From Deltaproteobacteria bacterium (GTDB lineage: Bacteria; DRYD01), in contig JAPYWL010000006.1 of the NCBI GenBank assembly GCA_028276365.1, positions 1-55,355 on the forward strand: a stretch of DNA of 55,355 bases. The letters are read 5' to 3'. A model generated the notes under the pieces. That model was not told where the DNA came from and searched no databases. It saw only the letters and a list, made by a program, of their open reading frames with translations. Below are positions 12,313 through 47,119 of the stretch, piece by piece. Numbering within the stretch: the stretch's first letter is position 1; every line of letters begins with the position of its first letter. Both the position numbers and the translations under genes were made by a program.

Positions 12313-12828
12313 CTATAGAACTCCTGGTAATCCAAAACTACCACTAAGTTGAGTAAAATTAAAATTAAAATTAAACTGATTGAATTGATTGTTTTGTTGA
12401 TTTTGTTGTTGTAATAGCATCATTAATAAAATTATCAATAACATTATGATTAATTGGTTATTAATTGAGTTAGGATTATTTTGATAGTATTGATTTCCAA
12501 ATGGTGACATACCTGGGCTCATACCGCCTAATGGATTCATACCGCCCATGGGTAATGAAAATGGAGACACTGGATTTTGTCCGCCTAATGCTCCACCTAA
12601 TATTCCTCCTAATAACCCGCCTAATATTCCACCTAATATTCCTCCTAATATTCCCCCTAGTAAGCCGTTAAGCATATTGTTCATTGGATTTATGTTAGCT
12701 ATATCTCCAAAACCTTGTCCTATACCAAAACCAGTACCTATTCCAAAGCCTCCACCTATACCAAAACCAGTACCTATTCCAAAACCTTGTCCTATAATTC
12801 CTCCAAACCCTCCTAGTTGATTTATCAT
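12313..12828 (-). CDS. Hypothetical Gly-rich, Cys-free glycine-zipper protein (harpin-like composition)
   Basis: SD AAGGAGGTG; about 5 GxGFGI repeats, tandem GGIL glycine zipper, LIIMLLIILLMMLLQQ, Q/N tail. Confidence 0.85.
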   Translation of the reverse strand: MINQLGGFGGIIGQGFGIGTGFGIGGGFGIGTGFGIGQGFGDIANINPMNNMLNGLLGGILGGILGGILGGLLGGILGGALGGQNPVSPFSLPMGGMNPLGGMSPGMSPFGNQYYQNNPNSINNQLIIMLLIILLMMLLQQQNQQNNQFNQFNFNFNFTQLSGSFGLPGVL

Positions 12829-12890
12829 TTTTATTCACCTCCTTTTTATATTTATAAATATAATTTTTTTTGTTTTTGTTTTTATTTTAT

Positions 12891-12929
12891 TTTGTAAAAA
12901 TAATTAAAAAAATGTTAAAATTGTAAAAA
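12891..12929 (-). promoter_or_regulatory. 39-bp upstream element, copy 1
   Basis: Coding strand TTTTTACAATTTTAACATTTTTTTAATTATTTTTACAAA; 35/39 identical to 20286-20324. Confidence 0.65.
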
Positions 12930-13133
12930 TTATGTATTTACTACTTGATTAAATGAATAGAGAAAAAGTTAAAGGCTTATTTATTAGCGATAAATTTAAA
13001 AAATATCTTTACACTAGAGTTTTCTTAAGAGTTTTTCTATATCTTAAGATTATTGTAATTGTGTGATTTTAATAAAAAATACTAATTAGTGTTTTGTTTT
13101 AGAGTATAATAGTTCTTATCTACTTTACTTTCC

Positions 13134-13387
13134 TTATGATTGTTTTTTAACTACTTTTAGTGATAAAGAAACTATTTTATTGTTTATATAGATTCCTGGG
13201 ATATAAGCTATACCTTCTAGTTTTAACCTAACGTATGCGTCAAGCGGGAGATTATAAATCTCACCATCTTCGGTAATAAATTTTACTGAACACAATCCGG
13301 ATAAAGATTTTCATATTGGGCAGGAATACAACCCTTAATTATTCTATACTCTTGAAATGGTTTATTTATTATCATTTCTATATGCAT
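13134..13387 (-). pseudogene. Possible frameshifted gene remnant
   Basis: MHIEMIINKPFQEYRIIKGCIPAQYENLYPDC, then after a shift at TGTGT SVKFITEDGEIYNLPLDAYVRLKLEGIAYIPGIYINNKIVSLSLKVVKKQS; more GC-rich than its flanks. Confidence 0.35.
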
Positions 13388-13482
13388 TTTTATTTTCTTC
13401 AATTGCTTAATTTATTTTTTAAGGCTTTGGATAGTTTAGTGTAACTCATATTTGGGAAATTATTTTATTACTTAGCTTTTGA

Positions 13483-13749
13483 TTAAGATAAATTTTTTTC
13501 AATTAATGAGGCTAGCTGGATATCTTTATCAGTTATGGAATTAGAGGAATGAGTAAAAAGCTTTATAATGATTTTTTTATAATAGATTTCTAAGTCAGGA
13601 TGATGATTAAGTTTTTCAGCTAAAAACGCAATCAAGTTAAATACTAAAACTACCTCTTTAAAATTATTTAAATTTATTTCCCTATAGAGTTTGTTATCTA
13701 TAATTTTCCATTGATTATTTTCATTTAAAAATTTTTCTAAACTACTCAT
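13483..13749 (-). CDS. phhB: Pterin-4-alpha-carbinolamine dehydratase
   Basis: AEKLNHHPDL, LFTHSSNSITDKDIQLA. Confidence 0.92.
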   Translation of the reverse strand: MSSLEKFLNENNQWKIIDNKLYREINLNNFKEVVLVFNLIAFLAEKLNHHPDLEIYYKKIIIKLFTHSSNSITDKDIQLASLIEKNLS

Positions 13750-13781
13750 TTTATACCTCCTTTATATATTTACCTCTTTTT

Positions 13782-14918
13782 TTATATATTAAAGATTTCA
13801 TTAATAGTATTGGCAACGTATTCAACATCATTTAATGAAATATAATGATACATAGGCAAGCTTAAAACTTTAGTAGCTAAATCTTCTGAATTGGTTAATG
13901 GATAATATACTTTGTAATTGTTTTTATTTAAATAAACAGGTAATTTATGTAAAGGATAAGGATAGTATATATTTGTTTCTATTCCTTTATTTTCTAGTTC
14001 TTTTTTTAGGTTATCTCTGCTAATAGGAGAATTATTTTTTATTAAAATAGTATATTGGTGATAAACATGATGAAAATTATTATTTTCTGGCTTGGGTGTA
14101 ATTATGTAGGGATTTTTAGAAAGTATTCCATTATATAAATTAGCTGCTTTAATTCTATGATTATTAAATTTTTCAATATATTTTAATTTAACTTTAAGGA
14201 TAGCTGCTTGGATTTCGTCCATCCTTGAATTATATCCAAATTCCTCATGATAATACTTTTTAATGCTACCATGTACTTTTAACATTTTACACTTTTGAGC
14301 TAATTCTTTGTTATTGGTTATAATAAATCCTGCATCTCCGTAAGCTCCTAAATTCTTGGTAGGAAAGCAAGAAAAAGCACCCAAATCTCCAAAGGTGCCA
14401 ACCAATTTATTATTGTATTTAGCACCAAAGGCTTGTGCTACATCTTCTACTACTTTTAAATTATATCTCTTAGCTATTTCCATAACTTTTTCCATATTAA
14501 CAGGTAATCCAAATAAATGAACTGGTATTATAGCTTTTGTTTTTTCAGTAATAGATTTTTCTATTAAATTAACATTTATATTAAAATTTTCATCTATATC
14601 AACAAAAACGGGTATAGCACCTATGTTGTTAATAACTTCAGCAGTAGCAAAAAAAGTAAATGGGGTGGTTATAACTTCATCTCCCTCTTTTATACCTAAG
14701 GATTTTAAAGAAATCAATAAAGCGTCAGTACCTGAATTAACAGTTATAGCATGCTTTACATTAAAGTAATTAGCTAAATTTTCTTCCAATTCTTGGACAT
14801 TTTTTCCCATTATAAATGTTCCTGATTTTAGTACTTTTTTAATTTCTTCTAAAATTTCTTCCCCGATATCTTCAAATTCTGATTTCAAATCGAATAACTT
14901 TATTTTTTGTATTTTCAT
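13782..14918 (-). CDS. DegT/DnrJ/EryC1/StrS family PLP-dependent sugar aminotransferase
   Basis: NSGTDAL, EDVAQAFGA, FSCFPTKNLGAYGDAG, GYNSRMDEIQAA. Confidence 0.95.
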   Translation of the reverse strand: MKIQKIKLFDLKSEFEDIGEEILEEIKKVLKSGTFIMGKNVQELEENLANYFNVKHAITVNSGTDALLISLKSLGIKEGDEVITTPFTFFATAEVINNIGAIPVFVDIDENFNINVNLIEKSITEKTKAIIPVHLFGLPVNMEKVMEIAKRYNLKVVEDVAQAFGAKYNNKLVGTFGDLGAFSCFPTKNLGAYGDAGFIITNNKELAQKCKMLKVHGSIKKYYHEEFGYNSRMDEIQAAILKVKLKYIEKFNNHRIKAANLYNGILSKNPYIITPKPENNNFHHVYHQYTILIKNNSPISRDNLKKELENKGIETNIYYPYPLHKLPVYLNKNNYKVYYPLTNSEDLATKVLSLPMYHYISLNDVEYVANTINEIFNI

Positions 14919-15023
14919 AACAACCCCCTTAAATTTTTTTATTTTTATTACTTAGTAAAACTTAATAATTATATTTTCTTTTCTATATTATAAAATTCTA
15001 TAATATATATTAAATTTCTTTTT

Positions 15024-15040
15024 TTAACACTTTTTTTACA
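15024..15040. promoter_or_regulatory. Direct-repeat motif TTAACA-N5-TTTACA
   Basis: 70 bp upstream of the ATG at 15111; same motif as 8956, 18677, 35583 and 47206. Confidence 0.5.
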
Positions 15041-15110
15041 TAAAAAATTGCTAATTGAGTTTTCAAAAGATAATACAAAATAAAACAAAAAAAAAAGGAG
15101 GGGATTAAAA

Positions 15111-15518
15111 ATGATAAACTTAACAAAAATAACTAAAAAAATATTAATAAATATTTCTATTTTATTAATAATAAACGTGTTAGGAATAATTAATGAGTCA
15201 TATGCTGTAAATGTAAGTCCTGTATATGTAAGTCCAGTATATGTTAATAGAGTGTATGTGAATCCTGTTTATGTAAGTCCGATTTATGTTAATCCTGTAT
15301 ATGTTAATAGAGTATATGTAAGCCCTACTTATGTCCCTCAAGTAATGATAAATAGAACTTATGTAAATACTAATTATGTATCTCCTGTTTATGTAAATCC
15401 TACTTATGTTAATAAAGTCTATGTTAATGAATATAATCCTTATAAAATTCTAAATGCATCTTATAAAAATATAAGAGTATCTTATTTTGATTATAATAAA
15501 CAAGATTTTAGTAATTAA
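15111..15518 (+). CDS. Secreted hypothetical protein with (V/T)YV(N/S)(P/R) pentapeptide repeats
   Basis: Sec-type signal (basic N-region, hydrophobic core, ESYA|V) followed by about 15 pentapeptide repeats; SD AGGAGG. Confidence 0.85.
   Translation: MINLTKITKKILINISILLIINVLGIINESYAVNVSPVYVSPVYVNRVYVNPVYVSPIYVNPVYVNRVYVSPTYVPQVMINRTYVNTNYVSPVYVNPTYVNKVYVNEYNPYKILNASYKNIRVSYFDYNKQDFSN
15207..15431 (+). repeat. Degenerate 15-bp coding tandem repeat
   Basis: TATGT(A/T)A(A/G)T units at 15-bp period, encoding VYVSP/VYVNR/VYVNP/TYVNK. Confidence 0.85.
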
Positions 15519-15552
15519 TTTAAATTATTAAATTATAAACAAAGGAGGAAAA

Positions 15553-16473
15553 ATGAAAATGTTTGAAATCAAAAATATAGGATTAAAAAAGACGGATTTT
15601 TTTAATAAAACTAAAAATATAGAAATTGATAAAAACCAAATTAAAAATAATTTAGAGATATTAAGTAGTGATGAATTTGATGGAAGATTAGTACTAACAG
15701 AGGGTAATGAGAAAGCTCAACAATTTTTAGTTGATAAATTTAAGGAATACAATTTAAAATCTTTTAATAATGATTCATATTTACAGGAGTTTAAATATAA
15801 TAATTCAAAAGTAAATAATGTGATAGGGGTAGTAGAGGGTACTGATCCTGAGTTAAAGAAGGAAGTAGTAGTAATAGGTGCTCATTTTGATCATGTGGGG
15901 GAGGGGTGGTTTTGTTGGAGAGTACCTGGAACTAATGATAAAATATGTAATGGAGCAGATGATAATGCTAGTGGAACTGTATCAATGCTTGAGTTAGCAA
16001 GATTATTTTCAAAATATCCTACTAAAAGGACTATAATTTTTGTAGGATTTAATGCTGAAGAAATGGGACTAATTGGATCTAAAGATTTAGCTAATAAATT
16101 AAAAGAATTATTACCAAATTACAATGTTAAATATATGATAAATATGGATATGGTGGGTAGGAATGGAGACAAGCCATTAACTGCTGCTTATGGTTCTCTA
16201 AATCCTAAAGAAGAAACAATATTAAAACAAACCTTAGAAACTTTAAATTCTAATAAAGATTTTGATATAGTAAATGGTAAAAATTTTAAATATTTTCCAT
16301 ATTCTGATCATTATCCATTTTATAAATCAGGAATTCCTGTTATAATGTTTTCTTCTTTATTACATGAAGATTACCATAAGGTAACAGATGAAGTAAATAA
16401 AATAGATTACAAAGCATTATTTAAGAGAATTGAAGCAGTATATAATGTAGTAAATAAATTAGCTAATTCTTAA
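15553..16473 (+). CDS. M28 family metallo-aminopeptidase
   Basis: IGAHFDH, NGADDNASG, FNAEEMGLIGS, NMDMVGR, SDHYPF, DYHKVTD; no signal peptide. Confidence 0.93.
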   Translation: MKMFEIKNIGLKKTDFFNKTKNIEIDKNQIKNNLEILSSDEFDGRLVLTEGNEKAQQFLVDKFKEYNLKSFNNDSYLQEFKYNNSKVNNVIGVVEGTDPELKKEVVVIGAHFDHVGEGWFCWRVPGTNDKICNGADDNASGTVSMLELARLFSKYPTKRTIIFVGFNAEEMGLIGSKDLANKLKELLPNYNVKYMINMDMVGRNGDKPLTAAYGSLNPKEETILKQTLETLNSNKDFDIVNGKNFKYFPYSDHYPFYKSGIPVIMFSSLLHEDYHKVTDEVNKIDYKALFKRIEAVYNVVNKLANS

Positions 16474-16589
16474 ATTAATTAAAATGAAGGATTCAAAGTA
16501 GGATTTTAATTTTTTTAAATGTAAAATATATGTAGGATGATATAAAAAACTGAAATAAAGTAATGAGGAATAAGTAAGGGGGGAGCAGG

Positions 16590-18665: not shown

Positions 18666-18676
18666 AAAAATAAAAA

Positions 18677-18693
18677 TGTAAAAAATATGTTAA
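18677..18693 (+). promoter_or_regulatory. Direct-repeat motif TGTAAA-N5-TGTTAA
   Basis: About 90 bp upstream of the ATG at 18785, followed by TATAAT at 18733-18738. Confidence 0.55.
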
Positions 18694-18784
18694 AAAAGCT
18701 AAATTTAGTTTTAATTTTTTAATAATTGATTATATAATTACTAAGAGTACCTTTAGGAAAAATATTAAAAGAGGGGGTGCTATT

Positions 18785-20035: not shown

Positions 20036-20285
20036 ATTAATACAATTATAATACAATTCCAATATAATTACAATTCTTTAAATAATAGTTTTTTAAATTG
20101 TTTTTACTAAAAATAGTGTTATATTTTTTTTATTTACTATATTTTTTTTTACTTTTTTTTAAATAGTATTAAAAAAAATTTTGATAAAACATTCAATAAA
20201 AAATTTAAAGATAATTAATAAAAAAAATAAAAAAGATGGTAGTTATAGAAAATCTTACTAATAATCTAAATATATAGAAACTATT

Positions 20286-20324
20286 TTTTTACAATTTTAA
20301 CATTTTATTTAGAATTTTTACAAA
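20286..20324 (+). promoter_or_regulatory. 39-bp upstream element, copy 2
   Basis: TTTTTACAATTTTAACATTTTATTTAGAATTTTTACAAA; 35/39 identical to the reverse complement of 12891-12929. Confidence 0.65.
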
Positions 20325-20396
20325 TTAAATAAAAAAATAATTAAAAAAATTGTAATAAATAATTAAAGAATTTAGGATAAAGGGGGTGAATAGAAA

Positions 20397-21392
20397 ATGA
20401 TGAATCAATTAAGTAGTTTTGGAGGATATATAGGTAGTAGCTTTGGGTATTATTATAACCAGTTAAGTATAGAACAAAAACAAGAAGTTAATAATATTTT
20501 AGGAAGTTTAGGAGTATCAATAAGTGAATTAGAATTTTACTTTGGATTTATATCTATAAGTTTAGGGAACGTATCATTTTTTGCTTTTGTATTTTTACTA
20601 AAGAAGAACCCAAATTTAATTAACAATCTAAGGGCTCAAGCTGCTGCTATGGGTTTTGGAGCTTTCGGAGCTGCTGGGTCTTTTAGTGTAGGAAATCCTA
20701 CAAGTACTCCATTATATAGTTCCCCTACTACATCATCAAGTGGAAAATCAAGTTCCTCTTCTCCAAAACAAATTGGAGACGCATTTTTAACTGCTTTTTC
20801 TTCTAAAGATATAGAAAATCTTAAAAATGGTGGTAGCTTAGATTTAAAAAATGGAGTTTTAAGTAATTTAAATGATTTAGCTAAATATGATAAAAATGGA
20901 GATGGAAAGATTAGTGGTGACGAATTAAAAGACCTACAAGTATCAATTGATTATAACAAAGATGGAAAAATAGATAAAAATGAATTAAAATCAGCTGCAG
21001 ATTCCAATATAAAAGAAATAGATCTAAAATCTGGAAAAGCTATTACAAACGATGGAAAAAATTTTGATCTAAAAGCGGATCCTAATGTCAATATAGGTGG
21101 AGAAAATAAATCAGCACTAATAATAGATTCTAATAAAGACGGACAATCTACTAAAGATCCTGATAATAGAGTACAACCTGGTGATTTTAGTCAATTTGGT
21201 TCTAAAACTGAGGATAAATCTTCTGACAATACATCATCTGCTAATGGATCTTCAAGTTCTAGTGGATCTTCAGAGGCAAGTGTTTCCTCAGGTTCTAGTA
21301 GTTCTTCAAGTTCTAGTGAGGCTTCTGGTTCTAGTGGATCATCTACCAGTGGATCATCTAGTGGTAGTAGCAGTTCTAGTGGTAGTAGTTAG
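20397..21392 (+). CDS. Hypothetical protein with EF-hand-like DxNxDG Ca-binding motifs and Ser/Gly-rich tail
   Basis: DKNGDGKISGDEL, DYNKDGKIDKNEL, DSNKDG; hydrophobic segment at about aa 47-68; SSGSS tail; no Cys. Confidence 0.85.
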   Translation: MMNQLSSFGGYIGSSFGYYYNQLSIEQKQEVNNILGSLGVSISELEFYFGFISISLGNVSFFAFVFLLKKNPNLINNLRAQAAAMGFGAFGAAGSFSVGNPTSTPLYSSPTTSSSGKSSSSSPKQIGDAFLTAFSSKDIENLKNGGSLDLKNGVLSNLNDLAKYDKNGDGKISGDELKDLQVSIDYNKDGKIDKNELKSAADSNIKEIDLKSGKAITNDGKNFDLKADPNVNIGGENKSALIIDSNKDGQSTKDPDNRVQPGDFSQFGSKTEDKSSDNTSSANGSSSSSGSSEASVSSGSSSSSSSSEASGSSGSSTSGSSSGSSSSSGSS

Positions 21393-21451
21393 CTCAGGTG
21401 AAGGGAAATAATAAAAATACATTAATATCATAATAAAAAATAAAATAAAAT

Positions 21452-22774
21452 ATGAATATAAAAGAAGCTTATAATCCTACTATAAATTTTATAGATTTAT
21501 TATCCTACAATGCAGTACAAATAATAAATGAAATATATAATTTACAAATAGATTCACCAACTACTATACATTTTTATTATCAAAATGTAATTAAAAAAAA
21601 TATAGTAAATGAATTTGATGTTATTATAGATATTTTGCAAATAAATAATAAAGATAATAATCAAAAAATAGATGATATTCTAATTTTAATAGAGGATGTA
21701 AAAGTAAAACTAAATTTATTAAAACAATTAATTTTAAATAAATTAGAAAATAAAGAAGAAAAAAATAATTCAGAAAATAAAGATGATCTTAAGGAATTAA
21801 AATTATCTTTTTTTTTAATAAATCAATTAGAAGCAGTTTTAAATCAAATAAATGTAGAAAATGAAAATCTTTATATAATAGATGTAGAAAATAAATTAAT
21901 AAGTTATGAAAATAAGGAATTTTTAAATTTTTTAAAGTTATTAAAAAATTCTTTTGATAATGCAAAAGTTTCTATCTGGAATTTATATAACCAAAAATTA
22001 ATAGATACCCCTTATTTTTTAAAAAATGAACAAAATTTTCTAAGAGAAATAGAGTTAAATGATTTTATAATTTTTTACTTATCAGATTTTATAAATTATG
22101 AATTGAATATAGATTGGGAGTTAATTTCATATTTACTATTTTATCAGGAATTACAAATAAAAGTAATCTTAAAATATCTTGGAGAATTTTCTAAAGAAAA
22201 TCCATTAGAAAGCTTATTCAATATACTTTATAATAAAGATAATTTAATTCAAGATTATTTAAATTATCTAAAAAATTTTGTTGATTTAAAAAATTTTCAA
22301 AAGCAAATATTAGAAGATTTTATCTTAAAAATAGAAAAAGAAGGTATAAATTGTATAATATGTAAAGAAAACAAAATAGATTTTGTATATTTTAATTGTC
22401 CAAAATGTGATATATATTATATAGATTTAATTACAACTGCTGATTCAATAAAATTACTTTTTTATTTATTAATTTTAAATGAATTTGATCTTTTATACGA
22501 AAATGTTATTAATTTTAGAGATTATCTTTATTCACTAATAAATAAAAATACAAAAATTTATAATAAAATTGGATATATTCAAATAGATTTACTTTATATT
22601 AATCAAATGATAGGCAAAATAAGAGAAATAGAAAGTATAATAAGTATTTTAGATGAAATAATAAGGATTTTAGAATCAAAAAAAGAATTAGAAATATTAG
22701 ATATATCAAACATCTCTAAAAATTTATATGAAATAAATAATAAATTAGAATTAATTTTATTTAGTATGATTTAG
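21452..22774 (+). CDS. Hypothetical helical protein with CxxC-CxxC putative Zn site
   Basis: 440-codon ORF; CIIC...CPKC. Confidence 0.75.
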   Translation: MNIKEAYNPTINFIDLLSYNAVQIINEIYNLQIDSPTTIHFYYQNVIKKNIVNEFDVIIDILQINNKDNNQKIDDILILIEDVKVKLNLLKQLILNKLENKEEKNNSENKDDLKELKLSFFLINQLEAVLNQINVENENLYIIDVENKLISYENKEFLNFLKLLKNSFDNAKVSIWNLYNQKLIDTPYFLKNEQNFLREIELNDFIIFYLSDFINYELNIDWELISYLLFYQELQIKVILKYLGEFSKENPLESLFNILYNKDNLIQDYLNYLKNFVDLKNFQKQILEDFILKIEKEGINCIICKENKIDFVYFNCPKCDIYYIDLITTADSIKLLFYLLILNEFDLLYENVINFRDYLYSLINKNTKIYNKIGYIQIDLLYINQMIGKIREIESIISILDEIIRILESKKELEILDISNISKNLYEINNKLELILFSMI

Positions 22775-22864
22775 AAATTAATAGAAAATATTTTTCAATG
22801 AAATAATTTTTAGAAGCTAAAGGAATTTTATTAACAAAGGTATAATAATAATAATGAAGCTAAA

Positions 22865-23239
22865 GGGGGTGTAAGGGGTTCGACGGTAAGAGGTAAGGAG
22901 ATAAGCTGCAGGCCGGGTCTTAGCTCCGTTAAAGCTAAGAGTAAAATAAACGCCGACAGAGAATTAGCTTTAGCTGCTTAATAATAAGCAGGCTTGCTAA
23001 GGTAGGTGCTTGCTACTACCTTAGTGGGTAAAAAATCTAGCAAGCTGCGCTTATAAGTCGCACCGCTTATAAGCTAAGCTAATCGGTGCTATGTGTATCT
23101 GTAGGTTCCTTGCTTATCCTACTGATACACTAAATCATAAAAGCAAGGGTTTGGTAGATTAGCCATAAATCTACCTAAGCCTGTAGATGCTATCTTCTTA
23201 GCTTACCGGACGTGGGTTCAACTCCCACCACCTCCACCA
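22865..23239 (+). ncRNA. ssrA: tmRNA; tag peptide ADRELALAA (22952-22981)
   Basis: 5' GGGGGTG...GGTTCGAC, 3' GTGGGTTCAACTCCCAC-CACCTCC-ACCA; acceptor stem with G3.U wobble; internal ORF ending LAA-stop. Confidence 0.96.
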
Positions 23240-23429
23240 CATTAAAAATATTCCCTAAATTAAAGATATAATCTAACTATTTTAATATCAAAACATTAAT
23301 ACTTATATCCTTGGGAATAATTTGTAATTCCTAAGATATTAAAATTAAAGTATCTATTAGTGTTTTGCTCAAAAATTTTCGGTAATTTTCAATAATTATT
23401 AATTCAAAAAATGAATAAAAAAATAAAAT

Positions 23430-23446
23430 TGTAAAAAATTAGTAAA
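23430..23446 (+). promoter_or_regulatory. Direct-repeat motif TGTAAA-N5-AGTAAA
   Basis: One-mismatch copy, about 82 bp upstream of the ATG at 23529. Confidence 0.45.
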
Positions 23447-26072: not shown

Positions 26073-26762
26073 ATTAGTGAGCTACAAGATATTTTAAAAC
26101 AAATAGATCAAAAAAAAGATAATTTTGATCTAAAAGATTTAAAAAATTTCTTAGTAAATATAAAAACTATAATAGATGAGAACATAAAAGAATTAAACGA
26201 TTCATTAAAAGAATTAGAAACATATAATGAAGAAATAGATGAGGAAGATAAATTAATTTTGGGTATTAAAAATAGTTTGGAAAATATAAACATAAGAATA
26301 GAAGAATATATAAAAGTACTCAATGAGATAATAGATAATAAGCGTGCTTATAATGAGGAGGAATTAGAAAATCTAAATAAAGAAATAGAAGAAGATTTAA
26401 AAGCCTTAGAAGAATTGATAAACATTAGTCAGGAAAATGGAGATAATTTTAACCAGGAAATAGAAGATTTTTACCCCATAGAAGAAATAGATGAAATAAT
26501 AGAAAATGAAGACTTAAATGAAAAGCAAAAAGAAAAACTTTTAAAAGATATTCAAGAAAGATTAAATAGTTTTAACCAAAATGTTGATTATTCTGTAGAA
26601 GATATATTAGAAAGTAATGATCTAATAGATGAAAACGATTTAAAAAAAGCGAAGATATTAAATAACTTACTAAAATCCTTAGATAAGGCTATAGAAGAAA
26701 ATAATGAAAACAAAGTTAATGAAATTTTAGAAAAGATAAATGATTTTATAAAAGAATATTAA
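26073..26762 (+). CDS. Acidic coiled-coil hypothetical protein, probable ATT start
   Basis: Frame open from 26052; SD AGGAGG at 26058-26063 lies 9 nt before ATT-AGT-GAG-CTA (xSELQDILKQIDQKK); the track start (TTG 26259) is internal. Confidence 0.7.
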   Translation: MSELQDILKQIDQKKDNFDLKDLKNFLVNIKTIIDENIKELNDSLKELETYNEEIDEEDKLILGIKNSLENINIRIEEYIKVLNEIIDNKRAYNEEELENLNKEIEEDLKALEELINISQENGDNFNQEIEDFYPIEEIDEIIENEDLNEKQKEKLLKDIQERLNSFNQNVDYSVEDILESNDLIDENDLKKAKILNNLLKSLDKAIEENNENKVNEILEKINDFIKEY

Positions 26763-34145: not shown

Positions 34146-35597
34146 ATGGATTTTGATGTAGTTATTATAGGTTTTGGTACTTCTGGTTTTTTTTTAGCTT
34201 TTGAATTAATTAAGAATAATTTAAAGGTTGCGGTTATAGAAAAAGAGGATAATATTGGTGGGGCTTTAGTTAATTCTTTGATTTTTCCCACTGCTGGATT
34301 TCATACTTTGAGTGGGAAGCTAATTATTGTAGATAGTGTTAAGGAGTTTTTAGACTTTTGTATTAAAAATGGTTTTTCTAAGGGACATATTAGGGATCCT
34401 CTTAATTTTTCTTATTCTATAACCCCTATTAATCCTATTGCTTATAAAGCTTTTTTTGTTGACTATTTTTTACCTAATAATAATTTTGTATTGTTTAGCA
34501 GTTCAGTTATAGAAAATGTTTATGAAAAAGATGGTATTATAAGGTATGTAGTTATAAGAAATAAAGATAATAAAAAGTATAAGATTGGGGGTAAATTTTT
34601 TGTAGATGCTTCGGGAGTTTTAGAGTTATCTAGCTATATTGATATTAAATATCGTTTGGAATTAGAGAATTTACAGGCAGCTACTTTAATATTTAGATTA
34701 TCAAATATAGATTTTACTAAGATTATTAAATACATTAAAGAAAATAGAGATGATTTTTATAGTAAAACTGATATAGATTTAATGCTAAGTAATGATTTTA
34801 TAAGTGTTTCAGGATATTTTGAATTAGCTTCTAAATATTTATTTAATAGGGATTTATTATTAAGTAGAGACAGGTTTTTATTCTTTGGTGAAATTTTGAA
34901 AAATTTTGTTTATGTTAATACTTCTAGAATATTTTTAAAAGATATAATTAATTTTATTGTTAATGAAGTTAATAATTTAGGAGTAAAAAAAGAGGATTTT
35001 TTTAAAAAACGTAGTAGTGTAATATTACCTTCTAATAAAAATTTTTATAAAAATAAGAACATATTACATTATGATATATTAGAAAGAATAGGATATTATT
35101 TAGGTCTTAAGCAGGTATTTTATATTTACAAAATTATGAAAAAATATATAAAAGGGTTTGAGAATAGTTATATAGATTTAATTGCTTATAAATTAGGGAT
35201 AAGGCAGTATAAGGTTTTGAAAGGGGAATATGAATTAAATATAGAAGATGTAATAAATTGTAATAATTTTGATGATAAGATATTGATAGGTACTTGGCCT
35301 ATTGATATTCACATTAAGGATAAAATTGTTGAAAAAAAAGTTAATGAAGATGGTTATTATATTCCATTTAGAAGTTTAATAACAAATGAATATAAGAATT
35401 TGGTATTTGTAGGAAAACATATAAGTAGTGATGATTATGCTTTTAGTAGTTTAAGGATTCAAGCAACTTGTATGAATATGGGAAGTGTGGTGGGTAAGAT
35501 TTTATCTAATTTGATTAAAAAAAGAACTTATGTTTTGGATATAGATTTTTCTTTAATAAAAAAAATCTTTAAACAAACTTTTTTAACATTTTATTAA
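34146..35597 (+). CDS. FAD-dependent oxidoreductase (FAD_oxidored family)
   Basis: DVVIIGFGTSG, FVDASG, YYIPFRSL, GKHISS, RIQATCMNMG. Confidence 0.85.
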   Translation: MDFDVVIIGFGTSGFFLAFELIKNNLKVAVIEKEDNIGGALVNSLIFPTAGFHTLSGKLIIVDSVKEFLDFCIKNGFSKGHIRDPLNFSYSITPINPIAYKAFFVDYFLPNNNFVLFSSSVIENVYEKDGIIRYVVIRNKDNKKYKIGGKFFVDASGVLELSSYIDIKYRLELENLQAATLIFRLSNIDFTKIIKYIKENRDDFYSKTDIDLMLSNDFISVSGYFELASKYLFNRDLLLSRDRFLFFGEILKNFVYVNTSRIFLKDIINFIVNEVNNLGVKKEDFFKKRSSVILPSNKNFYKNKNILHYDILERIGYYLGLKQVFYIYKIMKKYIKGFENSYIDLIAYKLGIRQYKVLKGEYELNIEDVINCNNFDDKILIGTWPIDIHIKDKIVEKKVNEDGYYIPFRSLITNEYKNLVFVGKHISSDDYAFSSLRIQATCMNMGSVVGKILSNLIKKRTYVLDIDFSLIKKIFKQTFLTFY

Positions 35598-35599
35598 CA
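35583..35599. promoter_or_regulatory. Direct-repeat motif TTAACA-N5-TTAACA upstream of sigH
   Basis: Perfect direct repeat about 103 bp before the sigH ATG, overlapping the upstream gene's stop codon. Confidence 0.5.
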
Positions 35600-35702: not shown

Positions 35703-36569
35703 ATGATTAATACAGAAAACTATAATATAGATGAAATAAAAAAAGAGATGGAAAGTATTAATAAAGTTAAAAAAACAAGAAAAGTTAAGAATTTAGAAAA
35801 AAATGATGAAAATGGGAAGGAGAAAGATAAAAAGAAAGAAAAGAAACTGAAAGAAACAAATAAAAAAAGTTCTAAAAGCAAAACAGCTAAGAAGACTGAG
35901 TTAGAAAATGATTTATTTTCAGAAAGTATATTTGATAGTAATGTTTTAAATGAATCTTTAGAAGATCTAAAGGATGTAGAATTGGTTATGTTAGCTAAGA
36001 AGGGTAATGCTAAAGCTATATCTATTTTGATTAATAAGTATAAAAATTTTGTTAGATCGAGATCTAAATCCTATTTCATAGTGGGTGCTGATAAGGAGGA
36101 TATAATCCAAGAGGGTTTAATAGGCTTATTCAAAGCCATAAGAGATTATAATCCGGATAAGAAAACGAGTTTTAGGGCTTTTGCTGAGCTTTGTATAATG
36201 AGACAAATTATAACAGCTATTAAAACTGCTACTAGACAAAAACATTTGCCGCTTAATTCGTATGTTTCATTAAATAAGCCTATTTTTGAGGATAATGGAG
36301 AAAGAGTTATGGCTGATGTTATTGCAAGTACTAGAACATGTAATCCTGAGGAAATTTATATAGCTTTAGAATTAACTAAAAGTATAAAAGAAAAGATGAA
36401 GAAATATTTAAGTGGCTTAGAATCTAGCGTTTTGGCTGAGTATTTAAAGGGGTTATCTTATTATGAGGTAGCTAAAAATATAGGAAAACATATAAAATCT
36501 GTGGATAATGCTTTACAACGAATTAAGCGAAAAATCCAAGAAACTATTAAAGAAGCTTACGGGATTTAG
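35703..36569 (+). CDS. sigH: RNA polymerase sigma factor SigH-like, with charged N-terminal extension
   Basis: KYKNFVRSRSKSYFIVGADKEDIIQEG, SFRAFAELCIMRQIITAIKTATRQKHLPLNSYVSL, KSVDNALQRIKRK match Bacillota SigH. Confidence 0.93.
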   Translation: MINTENYNIDEIKKEMESINKVKKTRKVKNLEKNDENGKEKDKKKEKKLKETNKKSSKSKTAKKTELENDLFSESIFDSNVLNESLEDLKDVELVMLAKKGNAKAISILINKYKNFVRSRSKSYFIVGADKEDIIQEGLIGLFKAIRDYNPDKKTSFRAFAELCIMRQIITAIKTATRQKHLPLNSYVSLNKPIFEDNGERVMADVIASTRTCNPEEIYIALELTKSIKEKMKKYLSGLESSVLAEYLKGLSYYEVAKNIGKHIKSVDNALQRIKRKIQETIKEAYGI

Positions 36570-36652
36570 TAATTTTTTGTTTTTTAGTATTATAATTTTT
36601 TACTCTAATTAATTTTAGTGAGTTTGTTTTTTACATTTATATTTTTTATTTA

Positions 36653-36677
36653 AGGAATTTAAAAAAAAATGTAGAAT
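36653..36677 (+). promoter_or_regulatory. Putative SigH-type promoter (AGGA-N17-GAAT)
   Basis: AGGAATTTAAAAAAAAATGTAGAAT, 42 bp before the ATG at 36720. Confidence 0.55.
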
Positions 36678-36719
36678 TTGTATTTAGGTATGTAATTATT
36701 TTTTATATTTGAATAAAGA

Positions 36720-38333: not shown

Positions 38334-38339
38334 TATTAA

Positions 38340-39017: not shown

Positions 39018-39062
39018 TGAATTCATTTAAGAAGATGTAAAAAAAGGGGTGTGATTTAGTTT

Positions 39063-41162: not shown

Positions 41163-41194
41163 TCTATTCTATTAAAAAAGGAGTAGAATTTATA

Positions 41195-42592: not shown

Positions 42593-43072
42593 ATATTATA
42601 AATTAAAAAATAGATAATTTTATTTAAATGCACTGAAAATTAATTAATCTCTTTGCATATAAGCTATCTAGGCTTTATTATTTTTTTGATAAAACAAAAT
42701 CTGCTTGATAGTAAAGACCATATATCTTTTCATTTACTACAATGTGTATAATAAATCATTGTCAGAAATTTTAAGATTAGATAACTAAAGAAAATGAAAA
42801 GTAATTTACTTTACCATATGTCCAAAAATTTGATTATTTATTTGAGTATGCTATTTATTATTTTTTTAAATATCTATCCATATTTTGAACCATTTTTAGA
42901 GAACTTAATATACATGTTGAGTAATGATTAATCCTTAGTTGTTTTGAAATTAATATATTATTAGAAATTTTAGTAAAGATAACATGAATTAGAGTTTTAA
43001 AAATTTTATATAAATAATTGGTAATAAGAGAATGTTATGTATGTTTGTGGTTGAGGGGAATGTGAAAAGAGG

Positions 43073-43807
43073 TTATTTTTTACTAAAGAAGTGATATAAG
43101 AAGATGGCAGCTGCATTGGTTAAATTTAAACTCTCTACATTTAATATTTCAATACTTACAGTTTTTAAATTATTTATATTTTTTATTATTTCTTTTGGAA
43201 CTCCAGTTTCTCCACCTAATATTACTAAACTTTTAGGTAATATAAAATCATAATTTAGTTTATGTAATTTGTATTCTCCATTTTTATCTAATAAAATTAT
43301 ATTGTATTTTTTTAAGACAAAGTGATTAATTATTTTAGTGATACTATGGAATCTATGGATTTTGATTTTAGAGTTTCTTGAAGTTTGGATAACTATTTCA
43401 TTAACGGGACAAGCATTTTCAGTAGGGATTAATATACCAGCTATATCAAAGGCATAACATACTCTCATTAAAGCTCCTAAATTCCTTGGATCTTTTATCT
43501 TATAACCTAAAACTATTATTGGCAATCTCACTTTATTAATATTTTCTTCTATTTCATTTAAACTACTATAAATAAAATCAAAGTATTCTAAAACTATTAA
43601 CTGATGATCTAAGAAATTAAATTTTTTTTTTAAAGAATTAGAGTTTAGTATATGAACGGGAATATTGTTTTGTTTTAAATTATGAATTATATCTTTTATA
43701 TAACTTTGATTTTTAATGGAATCCGATATATAGACTTTTGTTACTTTTTTTAGATTATTTTTATCTTGTAAGAATTCTTTTATAAGTTTCTTATTGTAAA
43801 GATACAT
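43073..43807 (-). CDS. TrmH/SpoU family RNA methyltransferase (RlmB-like)
   Basis: DPRNLGALMR, ILGGETGV, VESLNLTNAAAI. Confidence 0.88.
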   Translation of the reverse strand: MYLYNKKLIKEFLQDKNNLKKVTKVYISDSIKNQSYIKDIIHNLKQNNIPVHILNSNSLKKKFNFLDHQLIVLEYFDFIYSSLNEIEENINKVRLPIIVLGYKIKDPRNLGALMRVCYAFDIAGILIPTENACPVNEIVIQTSRNSKIKIHRFHSITKIINHFVLKKYNIILLDKNGEYKLHKLNYDFILPKSLVILGGETGVPKEIIKNINNLKTVSIEILNVESLNLTNAAAIFLYHFFSKK

Positions 43808-43844
43808 ATTTATCCTATTTACTTTAGAAGTTTTAGTTAATAAT

Positions 43845-44606
43845 TTATTTTTTAATAAACTTTTGATAAAGTTCTACAATAGATGATTCTTTAAAATATC
43901 CTACACTAAATAGGAAAAATATTAATAAAAAAGTCAAGGATGTAAAAACAATATAGGGGAGTAATTTTAAATATTTGTTATTTAAATCACTAACTTGGAA
44001 GTATATTAAATCTGTAATAAGTTTTATTATCTTATAAAAATAGAAGAATATAGATATTGGTAGCAAATAGATTAAGTAGGGTAAGAATATATATAGCGAA
44101 GTAAGATAAAATATGAATACCAAAAAATTAAATAGTAAAATGAATTTAATAAAATCAGATTTTGAAGAATTTCTGTTATTAAATAAGTTATCATATTGTT
44201 CATAAAGTGCTTTATTTATAGATAATTCAAAATATTTAAAGATTAATCCTAAGTGTGAAGCCATAAATAATCCTGTAAAGTATCTAATGTAGTTTGTTGT
44301 TTCTCTTAGTTTTGAATAACTCGTTATTCCATCTATCCCAAATAAAAATAAATAAAACAAAAATAAAAATATTATTATTTTAATATGATTGGAAATTAAG
44401 TTATTTATATAGTTTTTGTCTTTGTAAAGTAATTTAGAAAGTAGAAATATAATAGTAAAACTTAACAAGAATCCGATATAAGTACCTGTATCTCTTGAAC
44501 AAACGAAAAATTGATAACCTCCTATTGAGCAAAATGATCTTTCACTGATTTGATGGCATAAGCCGCTAAATATAAAAAATAAAAAATCGTATATTTTTTC
44601 TACCAT
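43845..44606 (-). CDS. DUF2085-like membrane protein
   Basis: CHQISERSF...VCSRDTGTYIG, IDGITSY, RYFTG; multiple TM segments. Confidence 0.82.
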   Translation of the reverse strand: MVEKIYDFLFFIFSGLCHQISERSFCSIGGYQFFVCSRDTGTYIGFLLSFTIIFLLSKLLYKDKNYINNLISNHIKIIIFLFLFYLFLFGIDGITSYSKLRETTNYIRYFTGLFMASHLGLIFKYFELSINKALYEQYDNLFNNRNSSKSDFIKFILLFNFLVFIFYLTSLYIFLPYLIYLLPISIFFYFYKIIKLITDLIYFQVSDLNNKYLKLLPYIVFTSLTFLLIFFLFSVGYFKESSIVELYQKFIKK

Positions 44607-44848
44607 AAGATTTTATTTATTTTTATTTTAACTCAAAATTTGCTTTATTTTTTATGTTTTATTTTTTATATTTCGTTTGAGAAAAATATATTAGGATAGT
44701 CTTTAAGGTTATAATTTGATGTCATGGGTTCTCTATATTCTTTAGCAGTTCCTATATACTTTAGATTTAGTTTTTATTTATTCTTAGTTATTCCCCCTTT
44801 TAAGTATATTTAAGCTTTTATGATGTTTTAATTTTAACTTTAACTTTT

Positions 44849-46090
44849 TTATTTATTTATTATTTCTTCTAATTTGTTAAGAATCTTTTTTAATTTGATT
44901 TCTAATTTTTCTTTATTTTTAGGATTTTTATTGTTTGGATCAATTTTTAGTTCTTTATAGTACATTTCATAAATTTTTAAGATATTGGAAAAATCGATAG
45001 TGTTTATTTGATTTTGTTGGGAATTTTCATCATAACTAATTAATTTTTTTTCTTCTTTTGTATATTTTTCTAATTTTATAACATTATCAAAATTAAGTAA
45101 ATTCTGAATATCAAAAGAATTTAAGACATCACTAATTCTTATTTTTATATAACTATCTTTGTTATTTTCTATTTGGTTTATTAAATTGTTCATATTTTCA
45201 TTTATTTCAAGTGTAATTAATTTTTTATGATTTTTAAGTTCTATAAACTCTGATTTTATTAAATTATTTTCTATTGTATTTAGTATTATTCCATGTTTAT
45301 AATCTTCTCCAAAATCTAAGGGTAAAATAGAACCACTATAATAAATATTTTGAATTTTTTGGTATTTATGTATATGGCCTAAAGCAATATAATGAAAATC
45401 AAAGCTTATATCGTTAATTAGTACTTTATATATGTCATTAGTATATAATGGAGATTCACTATTACCTAGATTAGCACTATCTAGCATAATATGCATTACT
45501 AAAATTTTTATTGTATTTTGATTTAAATCTAAATCCTGTAATATTTTGCTTAATAAAATATTATGTAATTTTGAGTATGAATATTCTTTTTCTATTTGAA
45601 AAATCTGATGAAATTTAAGGCCTAACCTATACTCTATAAATGGAATTAATATTATTAAAATCTCTGTATTGTTTAGCTTGAATTTAAAATAGGGTAATTT
45701 AGAATTGTTATTAAAGTAATCTTCCAAATCTGAAAATGTGTAAATAATTATTTTTTTAGCACTAAATTTGTTTAGTAATTTATTATAAGCGTTTAGGTTT
45801 TTAAGTTTTAGGTCGCTATCATGATTACCAGAAATTATAAAAATATAATCAACTAATTCATAAGTGTTAATTAGGAAATTAATAAAGAGTTCTTCAGCTT
45901 CTAAAGAGGGAAGCTTATTATGAAATATATCTCCACTTATTATAACAAATTTAGATTTACTTTGTTTTATAATATACTCAATTTCTTCAAATGTTTGATA
46001 AAATTCATTATATCTATCTATATCTCCTTTTATTGATTTGATTTTTTTTCCTAAATGTAAATCACTTAAATGAATAAAATTTAGACTCAT
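44849..46090 (-). CDS. sbcD: SbcD/Mre11 family exonuclease subunit
   Basis: HLSDLHLGK, SGDIFH, SGNHDS, YIALGHIHK, YSGS. Confidence 0.92.
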   Translation of the reverse strand: MSLNFIHLSDLHLGKKIKSIKGDIDRYNEFYQTFEEIEYIIKQSKSKFVIISGDIFHNKLPSLEAEELFINFLINTYELVDYIFIISGNHDSDLKLKNLNAYNKLLNKFSAKKIIIYTFSDLEDYFNNNSKLPYFKFKLNNTEILIILIPFIEYRLGLKFHQIFQIEKEYSYSKLHNILLSKILQDLDLNQNTIKILVMHIMLDSANLGNSESPLYTNDIYKVLINDISFDFHYIALGHIHKYQKIQNIYYSGSILPLDFGEDYKHGIILNTIENNLIKSEFIELKNHKKLITLEINENMNNLINQIENNKDSYIKIRISDVLNSFDIQNLLNFDNVIKLEKYTKEEKKLISYDENSQQNQINTIDFSNILKIYEMYYKELKIDPNNKNPKNKEKLEIKLKKILNKLEEIINK

Positions 46091-46122
46091 TTTTTATTAA
46101 TAAGTGAGAAATAAAAATTTTA

Positions 46123-46686
46123 TTAGATGCTATTATATCCCATAGTAGCTGCGTTAACTCTTTCTTCAGTGGATGGATGAGATCTTAGGTAAGGGTGTGT
46201 AAAATCCATTGAAGAATTAAATCTTATTAATAGATCTAAAAAAGGTTGTAAAGGTAGGTTAGCCATTTTTAGAGCTCTACCTGCGTAATAATCTGCTTCT
46301 AATTCTTTTTGTTGGTTATATACGTTAGTAGCAAAAACATTATTACCTGACATCCATTGATACATAAATACTTGGGGAATATGGTTTAATACTTCATGAG
46401 CCCATTCATGTGCTAATACCCCAAAAATAGCTTCATAACTTTCATTTTCTATAAACGATGGATCTATGAATACTATTTTTTGGCCTGTAGCCATTGCACC
46501 TAAGTTAGTTGGATATATTTGAACTGTTATATATGTCCCATATAGATAATTTAACTTATTTGCTATATCATTTAATTGATCATTTGTTACTTTTGAATAA
46601 ATGTAATTTTTTGATATTAAAAAGAATAATAAAAATACTATAAAAAACCTGTAAAAAAATGAAAGAATAAATTTAATTTTGCTCAT
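46123..46686 (-). CDS. M48 family metalloprotease, exported
   Basis: GVLAHEWAH, ELEADYYA, SHPSTEER; N-terminal hydrophobic segment. Confidence 0.88.
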   Translation of the reverse strand: MSKIKFILSFFYRFFIVFLLFFLISKNYIYSKVTNDQLNDIANKLNYLYGTYITVQIYPTNLGAMATGQKIVFIDPSFIENESYEAIFGVLAHEWAHEVLNHIPQVFMYQWMSGNNVFATNVYNQQKELEADYYAGRALKMANLPLQPFLDLLIRFNSSMDFTHPYLRSHPSTEERVNAATMGYNSI

Positions 46687-46758
46687 TTTTATCTTTTTTA
46701 TTCTTAAATTTTTATTAATATTAAATTTAATTTATTTTTCTTTTTGAATTTTAGTTTA

Positions 46759-46792
46759 AAAAATAAAGGGGGAAAAAATCCCCCCTTTTTTT
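46759..46792 (-). terminator. Rho-independent terminator of the 99-aa gene
   Basis: Minus strand GGGGGA-TTTTT-TCCCCC followed by TTTATTTTTT, about 30 nt after the stop. Confidence 0.8.
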
Positions 46793-46819
46793 GAATCTTC
46801 TTTGTTAGTTTATAGGTTA

Positions 46820-47119
46820 TTATCCACCGCCGCCTGCTAATGCTTTTGTCCATTGGTTAGCTATTTGGGATTGAGTTTTATAAGCATCTAACCTTGTTTC
46901 TTCATGCATTTTTCTAATAGCTCTATTAGTATCTAATACCATTTTCATCATTTCTTGTTGATGTTTCTTTTCTGCTAATTGTTCAGATAACATTAGATTT
47001 TCCAATTCTCTTCTATTTTCGTTATCTATAGCCCAGGCGCGTGCTTGGTTTATAATAGGTTGCCATTGTTGTTGTCTTAGGAATGGAAGCCATTCAGTGA
47101 AGTCTCCTATACCAAACAT
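46820..47119 (-). CDS. Small helical Q/M-rich hypothetical protein
   Basis: SD AAGGAGGTG, own terminator, higher GC than its flanks, no Cys. Confidence 0.88.
   Translation of the reverse strand: MFGIGDFTEWLPFLRQQQWQPIINQARAWAIDNENRRELENLMLSEQLAEKKHQQEMMKMVLDTNRAIRKMHEETRLDAYKTQSQIANQWTKALAGGGG

Follow-up and report, generated by a model that had tools for sequence, protein, structure and literature searches.

Recurring modules in five signal-less proteins of a hot-spring bacterium: candidate components of the cell envelope

The 55,355-nucleotide contig JAPYWL010000006.1 (assembly GCA_028276365.1, deposited as a Deltaproteobacteria bacterium), to which we refer as the window, carries five orphan genes that, in a preliminary description, were considered to encode a single family of co-regulated, harpin- or translocator-like substrates of a Sec-independent export system. 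Our analysis leads to a different interpretation, which we favor only tentatively: the five proteins may be modular and anchored in the cell envelope. Under this interpretation, they would be lineage-restricted, strongly expressed, signal-less proteins put together from a handful of low-complexity modules that recur, namely glycine-zipper helices of the GGxxGG type, a Leu/Ile-rich helix with a Gln run after it, linkers rich in Asn, Pro and Met, elastomer-like G-x-P-G repeats, antiparallel coiled-coil hairpins of great length, and EF-hands. The proteins would be anchored in a membrane by their glycine-zipper and hydrophobic helices, hairpins and elastic linkers would project into or span the periplasm as scaffolds or tethers, and the same anchor module would place peptidoglycan-lytic enzymes encoded elsewhere in the genome; export would proceed either by an internal signal-anchor via Sec/YidC or through a flagellar type III gate. 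We propose this because of the fusions of such modules to peptidoglycan hydrolases and the conservation of the hydrophobic and glycine-zipper segments; membrane insertion, periplasmic orientation, the structural role and the route of export are what we infer. A more striking by-product of the analysis, judged from gene content, is an order-wide flagellar gene set without flagellin. The five genes, labeled P0001 to P0005 in window order, are:

12313..12828, minus strand: P0001, 171 aa
18785..20035, plus strand: P0002, 416 aa
20397..21392, plus strand: P0003, 331 aa
23529..26027, plus strand: P0004, 832 aa
46820..47119, minus strand: P0005, 99 aa

The genome and its relatives

The window is contig C88 of a genome denoted here G000 (contigs of which carry C-numbers), with an assembly of 1.59 Mb in 124 contigs, 24% GC and an estimated completeness of 87%. 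The window is bacterial, encoding tmRNA, Hfq and GroES/GroEL, and the genome belongs to a diderm, with an Omp85/BamA homolog and two secretins. Its relatives are uncultured, Calescibacterium-like metagenome-assembled genomes (MAGs); the P0005 copy of one of them is identical to an NCBI protein labeled 'Candidatus Calescibacterium sp.', and the matching RNA and DNA sequences come from hot-spring metagenomes. Comparisons were made across 11 genomes of one order, that is, G000, nine other genomes of the same family (two in the same genus, g1, and seven in a sister genus, g2) and one genome from a second family; the completeness of these MAGs is 71-90%. Genome-wide gene counts refer to 1327 crude genes.

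The open reading frames (ORFs) and peptide motifs given in the preliminary description are present as described, and the five ORFs are real genes: orthologs of all five were detected in relatives, and P0002, P0003 and P0004 are spanned, at 92-99% identity, by contigs from four RNA libraries (four studies), which show the presence of the sequences and not their expression rank or transcript ends. The interval 21452-22774 has thin RNA-contig cover, which is no evidence that it is silent. By-eye inspection of the N-termini likewise bore out the claim that none of the five proteins has a basic-plus-hydrophobic leader of the Sec type. Another trait that had been taken to unite them, the lack of cysteine, is real but not distinctive: cysteine makes up 0.49% of residues genome-wide, and 424 of the 1327 crude genes (32%) encode none. 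It is present in seven of the nine aligned sequences of the P0001 family (as CCQ, CYQ or YCQ) and in relatives of C27:6675, a gene that shares features with the five. In the five proteins and in the relatives that share their modules, Pfam and NCBIfam searches found only EF-hands above the cut-offs.

Shared modules and fusions to peptidoglycan hydrolases

The recurring modules are found in at least nine proteins of G000 and, within this genome, are confined to those. Four of the five window proteins contain hydrophobic or glycine-zipper segments (Kyte-Doolittle windows of up to 3.1) that are kept in relatives; as these segments may simply anchor the proteins in a membrane, they can be explained without Sec-independent secretion. 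Pfam glycine-zipper families (Gly-zipper_Omp and Rick_17kDa_Anti) match weakly, with E-values of 0.02-0.15, below the cut-off, and glycine zippers occur in P0001, P0004 and C27:6675.

The most compact representative is P0001, in which GFG repeats are followed by an NP motif, a GGxxGG glycine zipper (residues 55-82), the conserved sequence GQNPVSPFS, a Leu-rich helix (approximately 125-139) ahead of QQQNQ, and an FNFNF tail; the hydropathy values are 1.98 and 3.12. Clear orthologs were found in nine of the 11 genomes, and a family alignment of nine rows has a mean column identity of 59%. The combination of zipper, NP linker, Leu-rich helix and GxPG repeats defines what we call the P0001-type module, which recurs in three fusions with peptidoglycan hydrolase domains:

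G000:C52:7955-8965: P0001-like module ahead of an SLT lytic transglycosylase domain
L039:538-1527: SLT fusion, a 330-aa protein of G001 (SLT, 122 bits)
C1:3972-4682 (with the upstream part, 3696-4682): GH24 lysozyme fusion (83.7 bits)

In the present assembly, a TGA and a TAG interrupt the P0001-like upstream part of the last of these. The fusion proteins have no signal peptides; given that SLT and GH24 enzymes act on peptidoglycan, the P0001-type module would have to deliver them to the periplasm.

Several other normally extracytoplasmic enzymes of G000 likewise have no evident signal peptide (C44:3924-5180, C54:12876-14240, C39:2723-4069, C27:17834-18823 and C29:3484-4782); these signal-less enzymes include a clostripain-like C11 peptidase, two subtilisin-like (S8) proteins assigned by sequence reading, a NodB-type deacetylase and two SLT transglycosylases. 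Some of the signal-less hydrolases adjoin flagellar genes or P0002 orthologs, and the two SLT proteins are encoded beside fliK.

P0003 starts with a P0001-like N-terminus, continues with a hydrophobic segment (49-69) and Ala/Gly- and Ser-rich linkers, and contains two EF-hands (approximately 158-200) ahead of a poly-Ser tail. With scores of 42.8 bits for EF-hand_5 (cut-off 25.9), 37.0 for EF-hand_1 (25.4) and 32.4 for EF-hand_6 (25.0), the EF-hands are genuine by sequence criteria. Full-length relatives of P0003 were found only in G001, G002 and G003; elsewhere, the matches are contig-end fragments or cover the EF-hands only. The EF-hand proteins of G000 that resemble P0003 have signal peptides. 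A further P0003-like gene is split between two contigs (G000:C103:1-722 and C67:3761-4192, both on the minus strand, with 23 overlapping residues that are 96% identical); its product contains GGFGG repeats, EF-hand-like DxDGDG loops and a GFG tail.

P0005 consists of an aromatic and Pro-containing N-terminus, one long, strongly conserved helix and a C-terminal GGGG. It is present in all 11 genomes, with identities of 64-92% in the alignment (67-92% in the search) within the family and 38% in the second family; none of its 48 relatives has a described family. A coiled-coil protein of 370 aa (C83:24776-25888) has this helix again at its C-terminus (E 1e-6 with masking). A tetramer model of P0005 reached a score of 0.44, compared to 0.02 for the best control, a level attained by 20 of 30 solved homomers and one of 23 solved monomers, with the qualification that the model was built from four copies and our own alignment, unlike the set on which the scoring was calibrated. 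The tetramer runs agree in at least 84% of contacts, with a partner pLDDT (predicted local distance difference test) of at least 65, and the long helices are predicted to be parallel and staggered. An association of P0005 with the adjacent M48-like gene was considered and rejected, the relatives having no conserved neighbor of P0005.

The helical-hairpin pair P0002 and P0004

P0002 combines an invariant N-terminus (MSFDVFSNLN), the segment NTSYNPEPIPAVPEP, an antiparallel coiled-coil hairpin with the tip NPL(T/S)ASAGAQ, and a disordered, Met/Phe-rich hydrophobic tail. AlphaFold2 predicts the hairpin as two helices (86-188 and 194-321) with pLDDT above 90. Full-length orthologs without internal stops are present in all nine other genomes of the family (42-85% identity); outside the order, the search of 30 outgroup genomes returned only two coiled-coil matches at E of about 7e-4.

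The larger P0004 is composed of a helical N-domain, a glycine-zipper segment (210-235), a hairpin (245-457) with the hydrophobic tip AIP(L/F)VGPAIAAAL, approximately 30 GMPG-type repeats (463-585), a Met-rich region, a conserved helical domain (approximately 665-735) and C-terminal glycine zippers; here, too, AlphaFold2 predicts a hairpin, with helices 245-346 and 353-457 at pLDDT above 90, so that both of the proposed Pro-tipped hairpins are reproduced by modeling. P0004 was found in nine of the 11 genomes of the order and missed in G001 (90% complete) and G010; its motifs MAINPINN and LSIGIVSI are conserved within the genus only. Comparison of the P0002 and P0004 core profiles with hhalign gave a probability of 78.6% (E 1.7e-5) in an alignment of 215 columns that places the two hairpin tips in register, so the two proteins probably share a helical-hairpin core of about 100 plus 100 residues. 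Directly 3' of P0004 lies a very acidic, helical 167-aa ORF with a TTG start (26259-26762, plus strand) that has no Pfam family and is kept in G002, of the same genus (60-64% identity); it was not seen beside P0004 in the sister genus.

A search of 1.84 billion cluster representatives with a P0004 profile (residues 40-462) retrieved 40 proteins at E <= 1e-3, 29 of them at E <= 1e-10; at least two of the weakest matches are, on inspection, coiled-coil false positives. The family has about 35 distant clusters in other bacteria; its distant, high-GC members (proteins P0059-P0087) are rich in Ala, Gly and Pro and fall into two size classes, of approximately 380-450 and 650-880 aa. Shared with P0004 are a basic N-terminal KARKKIxPE motif, the tip AAIPFVGPA and a C-terminal LYxQIAxEGVEI helix. 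No Pfam family exceeded its cut-off in the nine distant members scanned and no NCBIfam model matched the three scanned, so P0004 is, at the level of profiles, a member of an undescribed family found in multiple lineages. One distant homolog has a sub-threshold match to an RTX N-terminal domain (20.4 bits; cut-off 26.8). In the single case examined (L101:1301-3337; 65% GC), the distant homolog has as neighbors genes for a histidine phosphatase, a Zn-ribbon ORF, DoxX, DUF255 and an MbnB-like protein; DUF255 is also found near P0002 in the sister genus, which may be a coincidence. The ESM Atlas contained no usable match for residues 30-462 of P0004; for the distant homolog P0080, it gave leads of 0.81-0.83 to hypothetical proteins, most often of Candidatus Melainabacteria, to be taken as leads only.

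In Foldseek searches of the PDB, the best matches of P0002 were the toxin components AhlB, MakA and SmhB (E 1e-3 to 4e-3, TM-scores 0.23-0.43), alongside which generic hairpins rank, and the matches of P0004 were weaker; overall, both models retrieve generic long hairpins at E >= 1e-3 and TM <= 0.45. When profiles of P0002, P0005 and the core of P0004 were compared with PDB sequences, the matches were only coiled-coil noise, among them coronavirus HR1, designed coiled coils and the H protein of a microvirus (E 0.22). Two specific identities were rejected. P0004 is not supported as a phage tape measure, given that its core and the homolog P0060 had no tblastn match in 50,697 phage records and that its context is housekeeping and chromosomal; nor is P0002 supported as a divergent flagellar axial protein, the hhalign probability against the FlgB/C/F/G/E-like proteins of G000 being 0.5%. 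Six-frame searches with PF00460 and PF06429 matched none of the five genes.

Upstream elements and shared 5' cassettes

Without correction, P0001 and P0004 match at E 8e-7 and P0002 and P0004 at E 1e-9; once SEG masking and composition correction are applied, none of the pairs among the five reaches significance, so that the proposal of one family fails. The uncorrected values reflect, in our analysis, composition and coiled coil, and profile support among the five is limited to P0002/P0004. The common N-terminus of P0001 and P0003 does exist, although it is due to a genus-specific 5' cassette that is absent in the sister genus:

12829..12960, minus strand: 5' cassette of P0001, with TTWACA repeats, untranslated leader and the Shine-Dalgarno (SD) sequence GGAGGTG
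20265..20396, plus strand: 5' cassette of P0003, a homolog of the P0001 cassette

Including the first 14 or so codons, these cassettes (12769-12960, minus strand, and 20265-20456, plus strand) have a mean column identity of 81% over 204 columns (about 190 nt). A second such pair is shared by P0005 (47060-47240, minus strand) and C27:6675 (G000:C27:6539-6734), at 85% mean column identity. Both cassettes comprise a paired upstream motif, a leader, the SD sequence and the first 14-25 codons, and their host genes are otherwise unrelated. In the sister genus, neither cassette is conserved; therefore, the N-terminal motifs that had been read as family traits are recent exchanges, and this genus- or species-specific sharing suggests recent recombination of 5' ends.

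The strong SD sequences noticed earlier are present in all five genes, as GGAGGTG or GGGGGTG located 6-9 nt 5' of the ATG. The GGRGGTG heptamer precedes 47 of the 1327 crude genes, and since these include groES, GAPDH, pilins, pilQ, flgB, flgG and the flgE-like gene, it is best read from this distribution as a mark of highly expressed genes rather than of a private class. The TGTWAA/TTWACA repeats, too, are found approximately 70-110 nt upstream of all five genes. In its paired form (TGTWAAAAA...WGTWAA, of 11-bp period and usually some 100-120 nt ahead of a start codon), the element occurs six times in the window, against 0.51 expected, a count reached in none of 100 shuffles. Three of these sites are at 8956-8972, 15024-15040 and 35583-35599, and three precede genes of interest here:

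18677..18693, plus strand: paired TGTAAAAAA/TGTTAA, 108 nt before the P0002 ATG
23430..23446, plus strand: paired TGTAAAAAA/AGTAAA, 99 nt before the P0004 ATG
47206..47222, minus strand: paired TGTTAAAAAA/TGTAAA, 103 nt before the P0005 ATG, within the cassette shared with C27:6675-7409

Genome-wide, there are 41 strict paired sites, compared to 0-6 in 10 Markov-1 simulations; for 19 of the 41, a crude gene start lies 40-200 nt downstream, at a median of about 108 nt. The paired element is found as well before flhB, fliF, clpP, several pilin genes, a DegT aminotransferase gene and many orphan genes. It is therefore no evidence for co-regulation of the five genes, and the claim of a private regulon does not hold; it is probably a general promoter-proximal element, either UP-like or a site for a global activator.

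Flagellar export genes without detected flagellin

The preliminary description stated that no Sec-independent export apparatus is encoded within the window, which is correct, and suggested a search for one in the rest of the genome. Such an apparatus was found, of the flagellar type III kind, although without a direct tie to the five genes; the refutation that the preliminary description had set for itself, the absence of any such system from the genome, thus does not occur. G000 encodes FlhB, FliP, FliF and FliG, the rod proteins FlgB, FlgC, FlgF and FlgG, FliE, a FlgJ rod-binding protein, a FliK-like protein and an FlgE-like protein of 269 aa that scores 128 bits with the FlgEFG subfamily model (cut-off 70); two lytic transglycosylases have as their best match, below its cut-off, the model of the Borrelia flagellar-assembly protein BB0259. 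The flagellar loci of G000 include:

C11:1434-4683 (flhA/flhB)
C29:963-4782
C27:14588-16471
C71:12445-13708
C83:34612-36240
C124:77460-78038

FlhA is encoded in all 11 genomes. By contrast with this conserved gate, Flagellin_N and MotB_plug were detected in none of the 11 genomes, Flagellin_C in none above the cut-off, and axial proteins of the size of FlgK/L or FlgE in none; FliD_C and FlgI were not found in G000, the one genome searched for them. Given that FlhA was recovered from every genome despite completeness of 71-90%, joint chance loss of flagellin and MotB is unlikely, and what is kept across the whole order looks like a flagellar system without filament and stator. With the usual late substrates not found, an export-only role of this apparatus is conceivable.

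The sole and indirect bridge that gene order provides between this apparatus and the five genes is synteny of P0002 with a DUF4126 membrane-protein gene, which lies 4-30 nt 3' of P0002 in all five sister-genus loci examined (of seven fetched) and, in G000, comes after flgF-flgG-flgJ. Two apolipoprotein-like coiled-coil proteins with 11-mer repeats are encoded in G000, one in the window (52593-53510, plus strand) and one on C29 (1805-2650, minus strand); the latter lies between the fliK-like and flgE-like genes, in the place expected for flgD.

Calescamantes have been inferred to swim with flagella (PMC4791363, in excerpt), and the titles and abstract openings of the literature on the lineage and on flagella, supplements aside, give no account of missing flagellin in this lineage. 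Apparatuses of this type are known elsewhere: according to excerpts of the respective reports, Lysobacter enzymogenes OH11's flagellar type III secretion system (T3SS) lacks flagellin and exports non-flagellar proteins (PMC7688988), and Buchnera keeps basal bodies without a filament (PMC8109811). The likeness extends to the retention of the export gate and of basal-body and hook genes in the absence of flagellin; in contrast to those cases, all 11 genomes of a deep-branching thermophilic order show the pattern described here, MotB_plug is missing as well, and the link to the five genes as cargo is presumed.

Comparison with known systems

Harpins are Gly-rich, Cys-free proteins of plant pathogens that are secreted by T3SS. 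The five proteins resemble harpins and the T3SS translocators SctE/SctB in lacking a Sec signal, in the hydrophobic-tipped hairpins, in Gly-rich composition and in the presence of a long and a short paralog (P0004/P0002); they differ in that no Pfam or NCBIfam model matches, the genes are not located beside T3SS or chaperone genes, and the apparatus is flagellar. Specifically, no harpin family is among the Pfam matches at E <= 1 for the five (a distant P0005 relative matches HrpA_pilin at E 0.11 and 13.8 bits, with a cut-off of 25), no injectisome (hrp) cluster surrounds the five genes, which have housekeeping neighbors, the only T3SS genes found in G000 being flagellar, and the acidic ORF adjacent to P0004, in the position where a class II chaperone was sought, matches no family. 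Like ClyA-family and tripartite toxins (AhlB, SmhB and MakA), which are the top Foldseek matches of both models, P0002 and P0004 have long antiparallel hairpins, but the matches are at E >= 1e-3, TM 0.08-0.43 and approximately 10-15% identity, no head domain is predicted, and the hairpins of chemoreceptors and SMC proteins score as well.

Small-residue zippers in hydrophobic helices are also characteristic of outer-membrane lipoproteins of the Gly-zipper_Omp and Rick_17kDa_Anti families, from which the proteins analyzed here differ in the GGxxGG pattern with a period of 4, in the absence of a lipobox or signal peptide and in Pfam matches below the cut-off. Cdz bacteriocins contain repeated small-residue glycine zippers in hydrophobic helices; of the corresponding context, a type I secretion system (T1SS) and immunity genes, nothing was seen among the annotated neighbors, a genome-wide T1SS search not having been run. 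None of the family models for harpins, translocators, pore-forming toxins or Cdz proteins matches the five. Omp-alpha of Thermotoga, a thermophilic diderm, is a coiled-coil envelope spacer with a hydrophobic C-terminal anchor, and P0002 resembles it in general layout, although without an SLH domain or sequence similarity, and with a hairpin in place of a parallel dimer rod.

Weighing the alternatives

Several considerations count against assigning the five proteins to the envelope. The hydrophobic segments were called from Kyte-Doolittle windows only, and the Leu-rich helix of P0001 has just about 14 residues; the glycine-rich stretches, where the AlphaFold2 confidence is low, may be disordered; P0005 has no hydrophobic segment, and the only candidate anchor of P0002 is in its low-confidence tail; the Pfam, NCBIfam and PDB profile searches revealed no described envelope protein similar above threshold; and the five genes, being dispersed among housekeeping genes with synteny that is not conserved between genera, may not act together. 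The principal alternative, close to the original proposal, is that some or all of the five, above all the P0002/P0004 pair and P0005, are late substrates of the flagellin-less, stator-less flagellar type III apparatus, which would carry them as translocon-, needle- or toxin-like cargo into the periplasm, onto the cell surface or to a target cell. The retention of the export gate and basal body, the failure to find the usual late substrates, the precedents of Lysobacter (PMC7688988) and Buchnera (PMC8109811), both known from excerpts, the DUF4126 synteny, the invariant N-terminus and disordered termini of P0002, the hairpin architecture with a hydrophobic tip, the pore forms of AhlB, SmhB and MakA at the top of the Foldseek matches, the predicted self-association of P0005 (0.44 against 0.02) and the signal-less state of several normally extracytoplasmic hydrolases (two SLT proteins near fliK, and the NodB, C11 and S8 proteins) all speak for this role. 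Nevertheless, we regard it as somewhat unlikely: no direct link to the apparatus was found and the upstream motif is genome-wide, P0002 has no profile similarity to rod and hook proteins (0.5%), the fold matches are generic, the strongly hydrophobic segments of P0001 and P0003 are atypical of T3SS cargo, and the MAGs are incomplete. An elaborated version, in which the flagellum would have become a filament-less, stator-less export organelle with the orphans as its late substrates, P0002 and P0004 being translocon-like or periplasm-spanning, P0005 (with the paralogous domain of C83:24776-25888) a needle- or tube-like polymer, the signal-less peptidoglycan hydrolases with the P0001-type module its cargo, and the 5' cassettes portable expression-and-export signals, is, taken jointly, unlikely.

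The absence of signal peptides and the large low-confidence regions would also fit cytoplasmic coiled-coil or disordered scaffolds, such as cytoskeleton-like filaments or condensate formers, in which Gly-, Asn/Gln- and Met-rich stretches would drive self-assembly; the head-rod-tail layout of P0002, the long rods of P0004, the predicted self-association of P0005 and the Asn/Gln-rich composition in a 24% GC genome agree with this possibility. Given that the modules also occur in fusions with peptidoglycan hydrolases, enzymes that need to get out of the cytoplasm, that the conserved segments reach hydropathy values of 3.1 and that the P0003-like EF-hand proteins of G000 bear signal peptides, we consider such scaffolds decidedly unlikely. 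It also seems very unlikely that there is no commonality of function at all, and that the five are unrelated lineage-specific orphans resembling one another only through extreme composition (24% GC, little Cys, much Asn) and through 5' cassettes exchanged recently. The lack of significant pairs after masking, the dispersal and varying synteny of the genes and the generic nature of the TGTWAA motif and of the Cys-free trait speak for that view; the re-use of the same modules in at least nine proteins of G000, the P0002/P0004 profile similarity and the re-use of the P0005 domain in C83:24776-25888 speak against it. The least probable of the readings is that the proteins are antibacterial weapons directed at neighbors in the streamer community, either Cdz-like glycine-zipper bacteriocins or alpha-helical pore-forming toxins. 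The zippers of P0001, P0004 and C27:6675, the hydrophobic-tipped hairpins with tripartite alpha-pore-forming toxins as top Foldseek matches, and the RTX match of a distant P0004 homolog point in that direction; yet no immunity, T1SS or toxin-delivery genes are seen adjacent to the five in the window (a genome-wide search for T1SS or type VI secretion systems not having been run), the genes are core, vertically conserved in the family and not polymorphic, and all the similarity is sub-threshold.

Other genes in the window

Another protein with a repetitive sequence, of 135 aa (15111-15518, plus strand), is kept in G002 and belongs to no Pfam family; it has a signal-peptide-like N-terminus, and nearly all of it is made up of pentapeptide repeats of the type VYV[NS]P. 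The window also encodes a sigma-70-family protein with a Lys/Glu-rich N-terminal extension of approximately 100 residues (35703-36569, plus strand) and a bacterial alpha-2-macroglobulin of 1485 aa (48009-52466, plus strand). The tmRNA (22865-23239, plus strand; tag ADRELALAA) has by far the top depth in the four RNA libraries.

Implications

The observations of the preliminary description hold in part, and its interpretation is supported in part: this genome has an export apparatus, and an odd one, but the claims of a single family, of co-regulation and of harpin or translocator identity fail. Whatever the role of the window proteins, the P0004 family is a candidate for a new family definition. 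Should the flagellar apparatus indeed be an export organelle for these proteins, the lineage would offer a natural case of a flagellum that became a secretion device by a route separate from that of the injectisome and whose cargo is identified, which would bear on the origins of non-flagellar type III systems; the flagellar swimming inferred for Calescamantes (PMC4791363, in excerpt) would then need revision. If, on the other hand, the envelope interpretation that we tentatively favor is true, the five proteins would be abundant, lineage-defining building blocks of the envelope in an uncultured hot-spring phylum, and would provide an example of proteins made by the shuffling of low-complexity modules and 5' cassettes.

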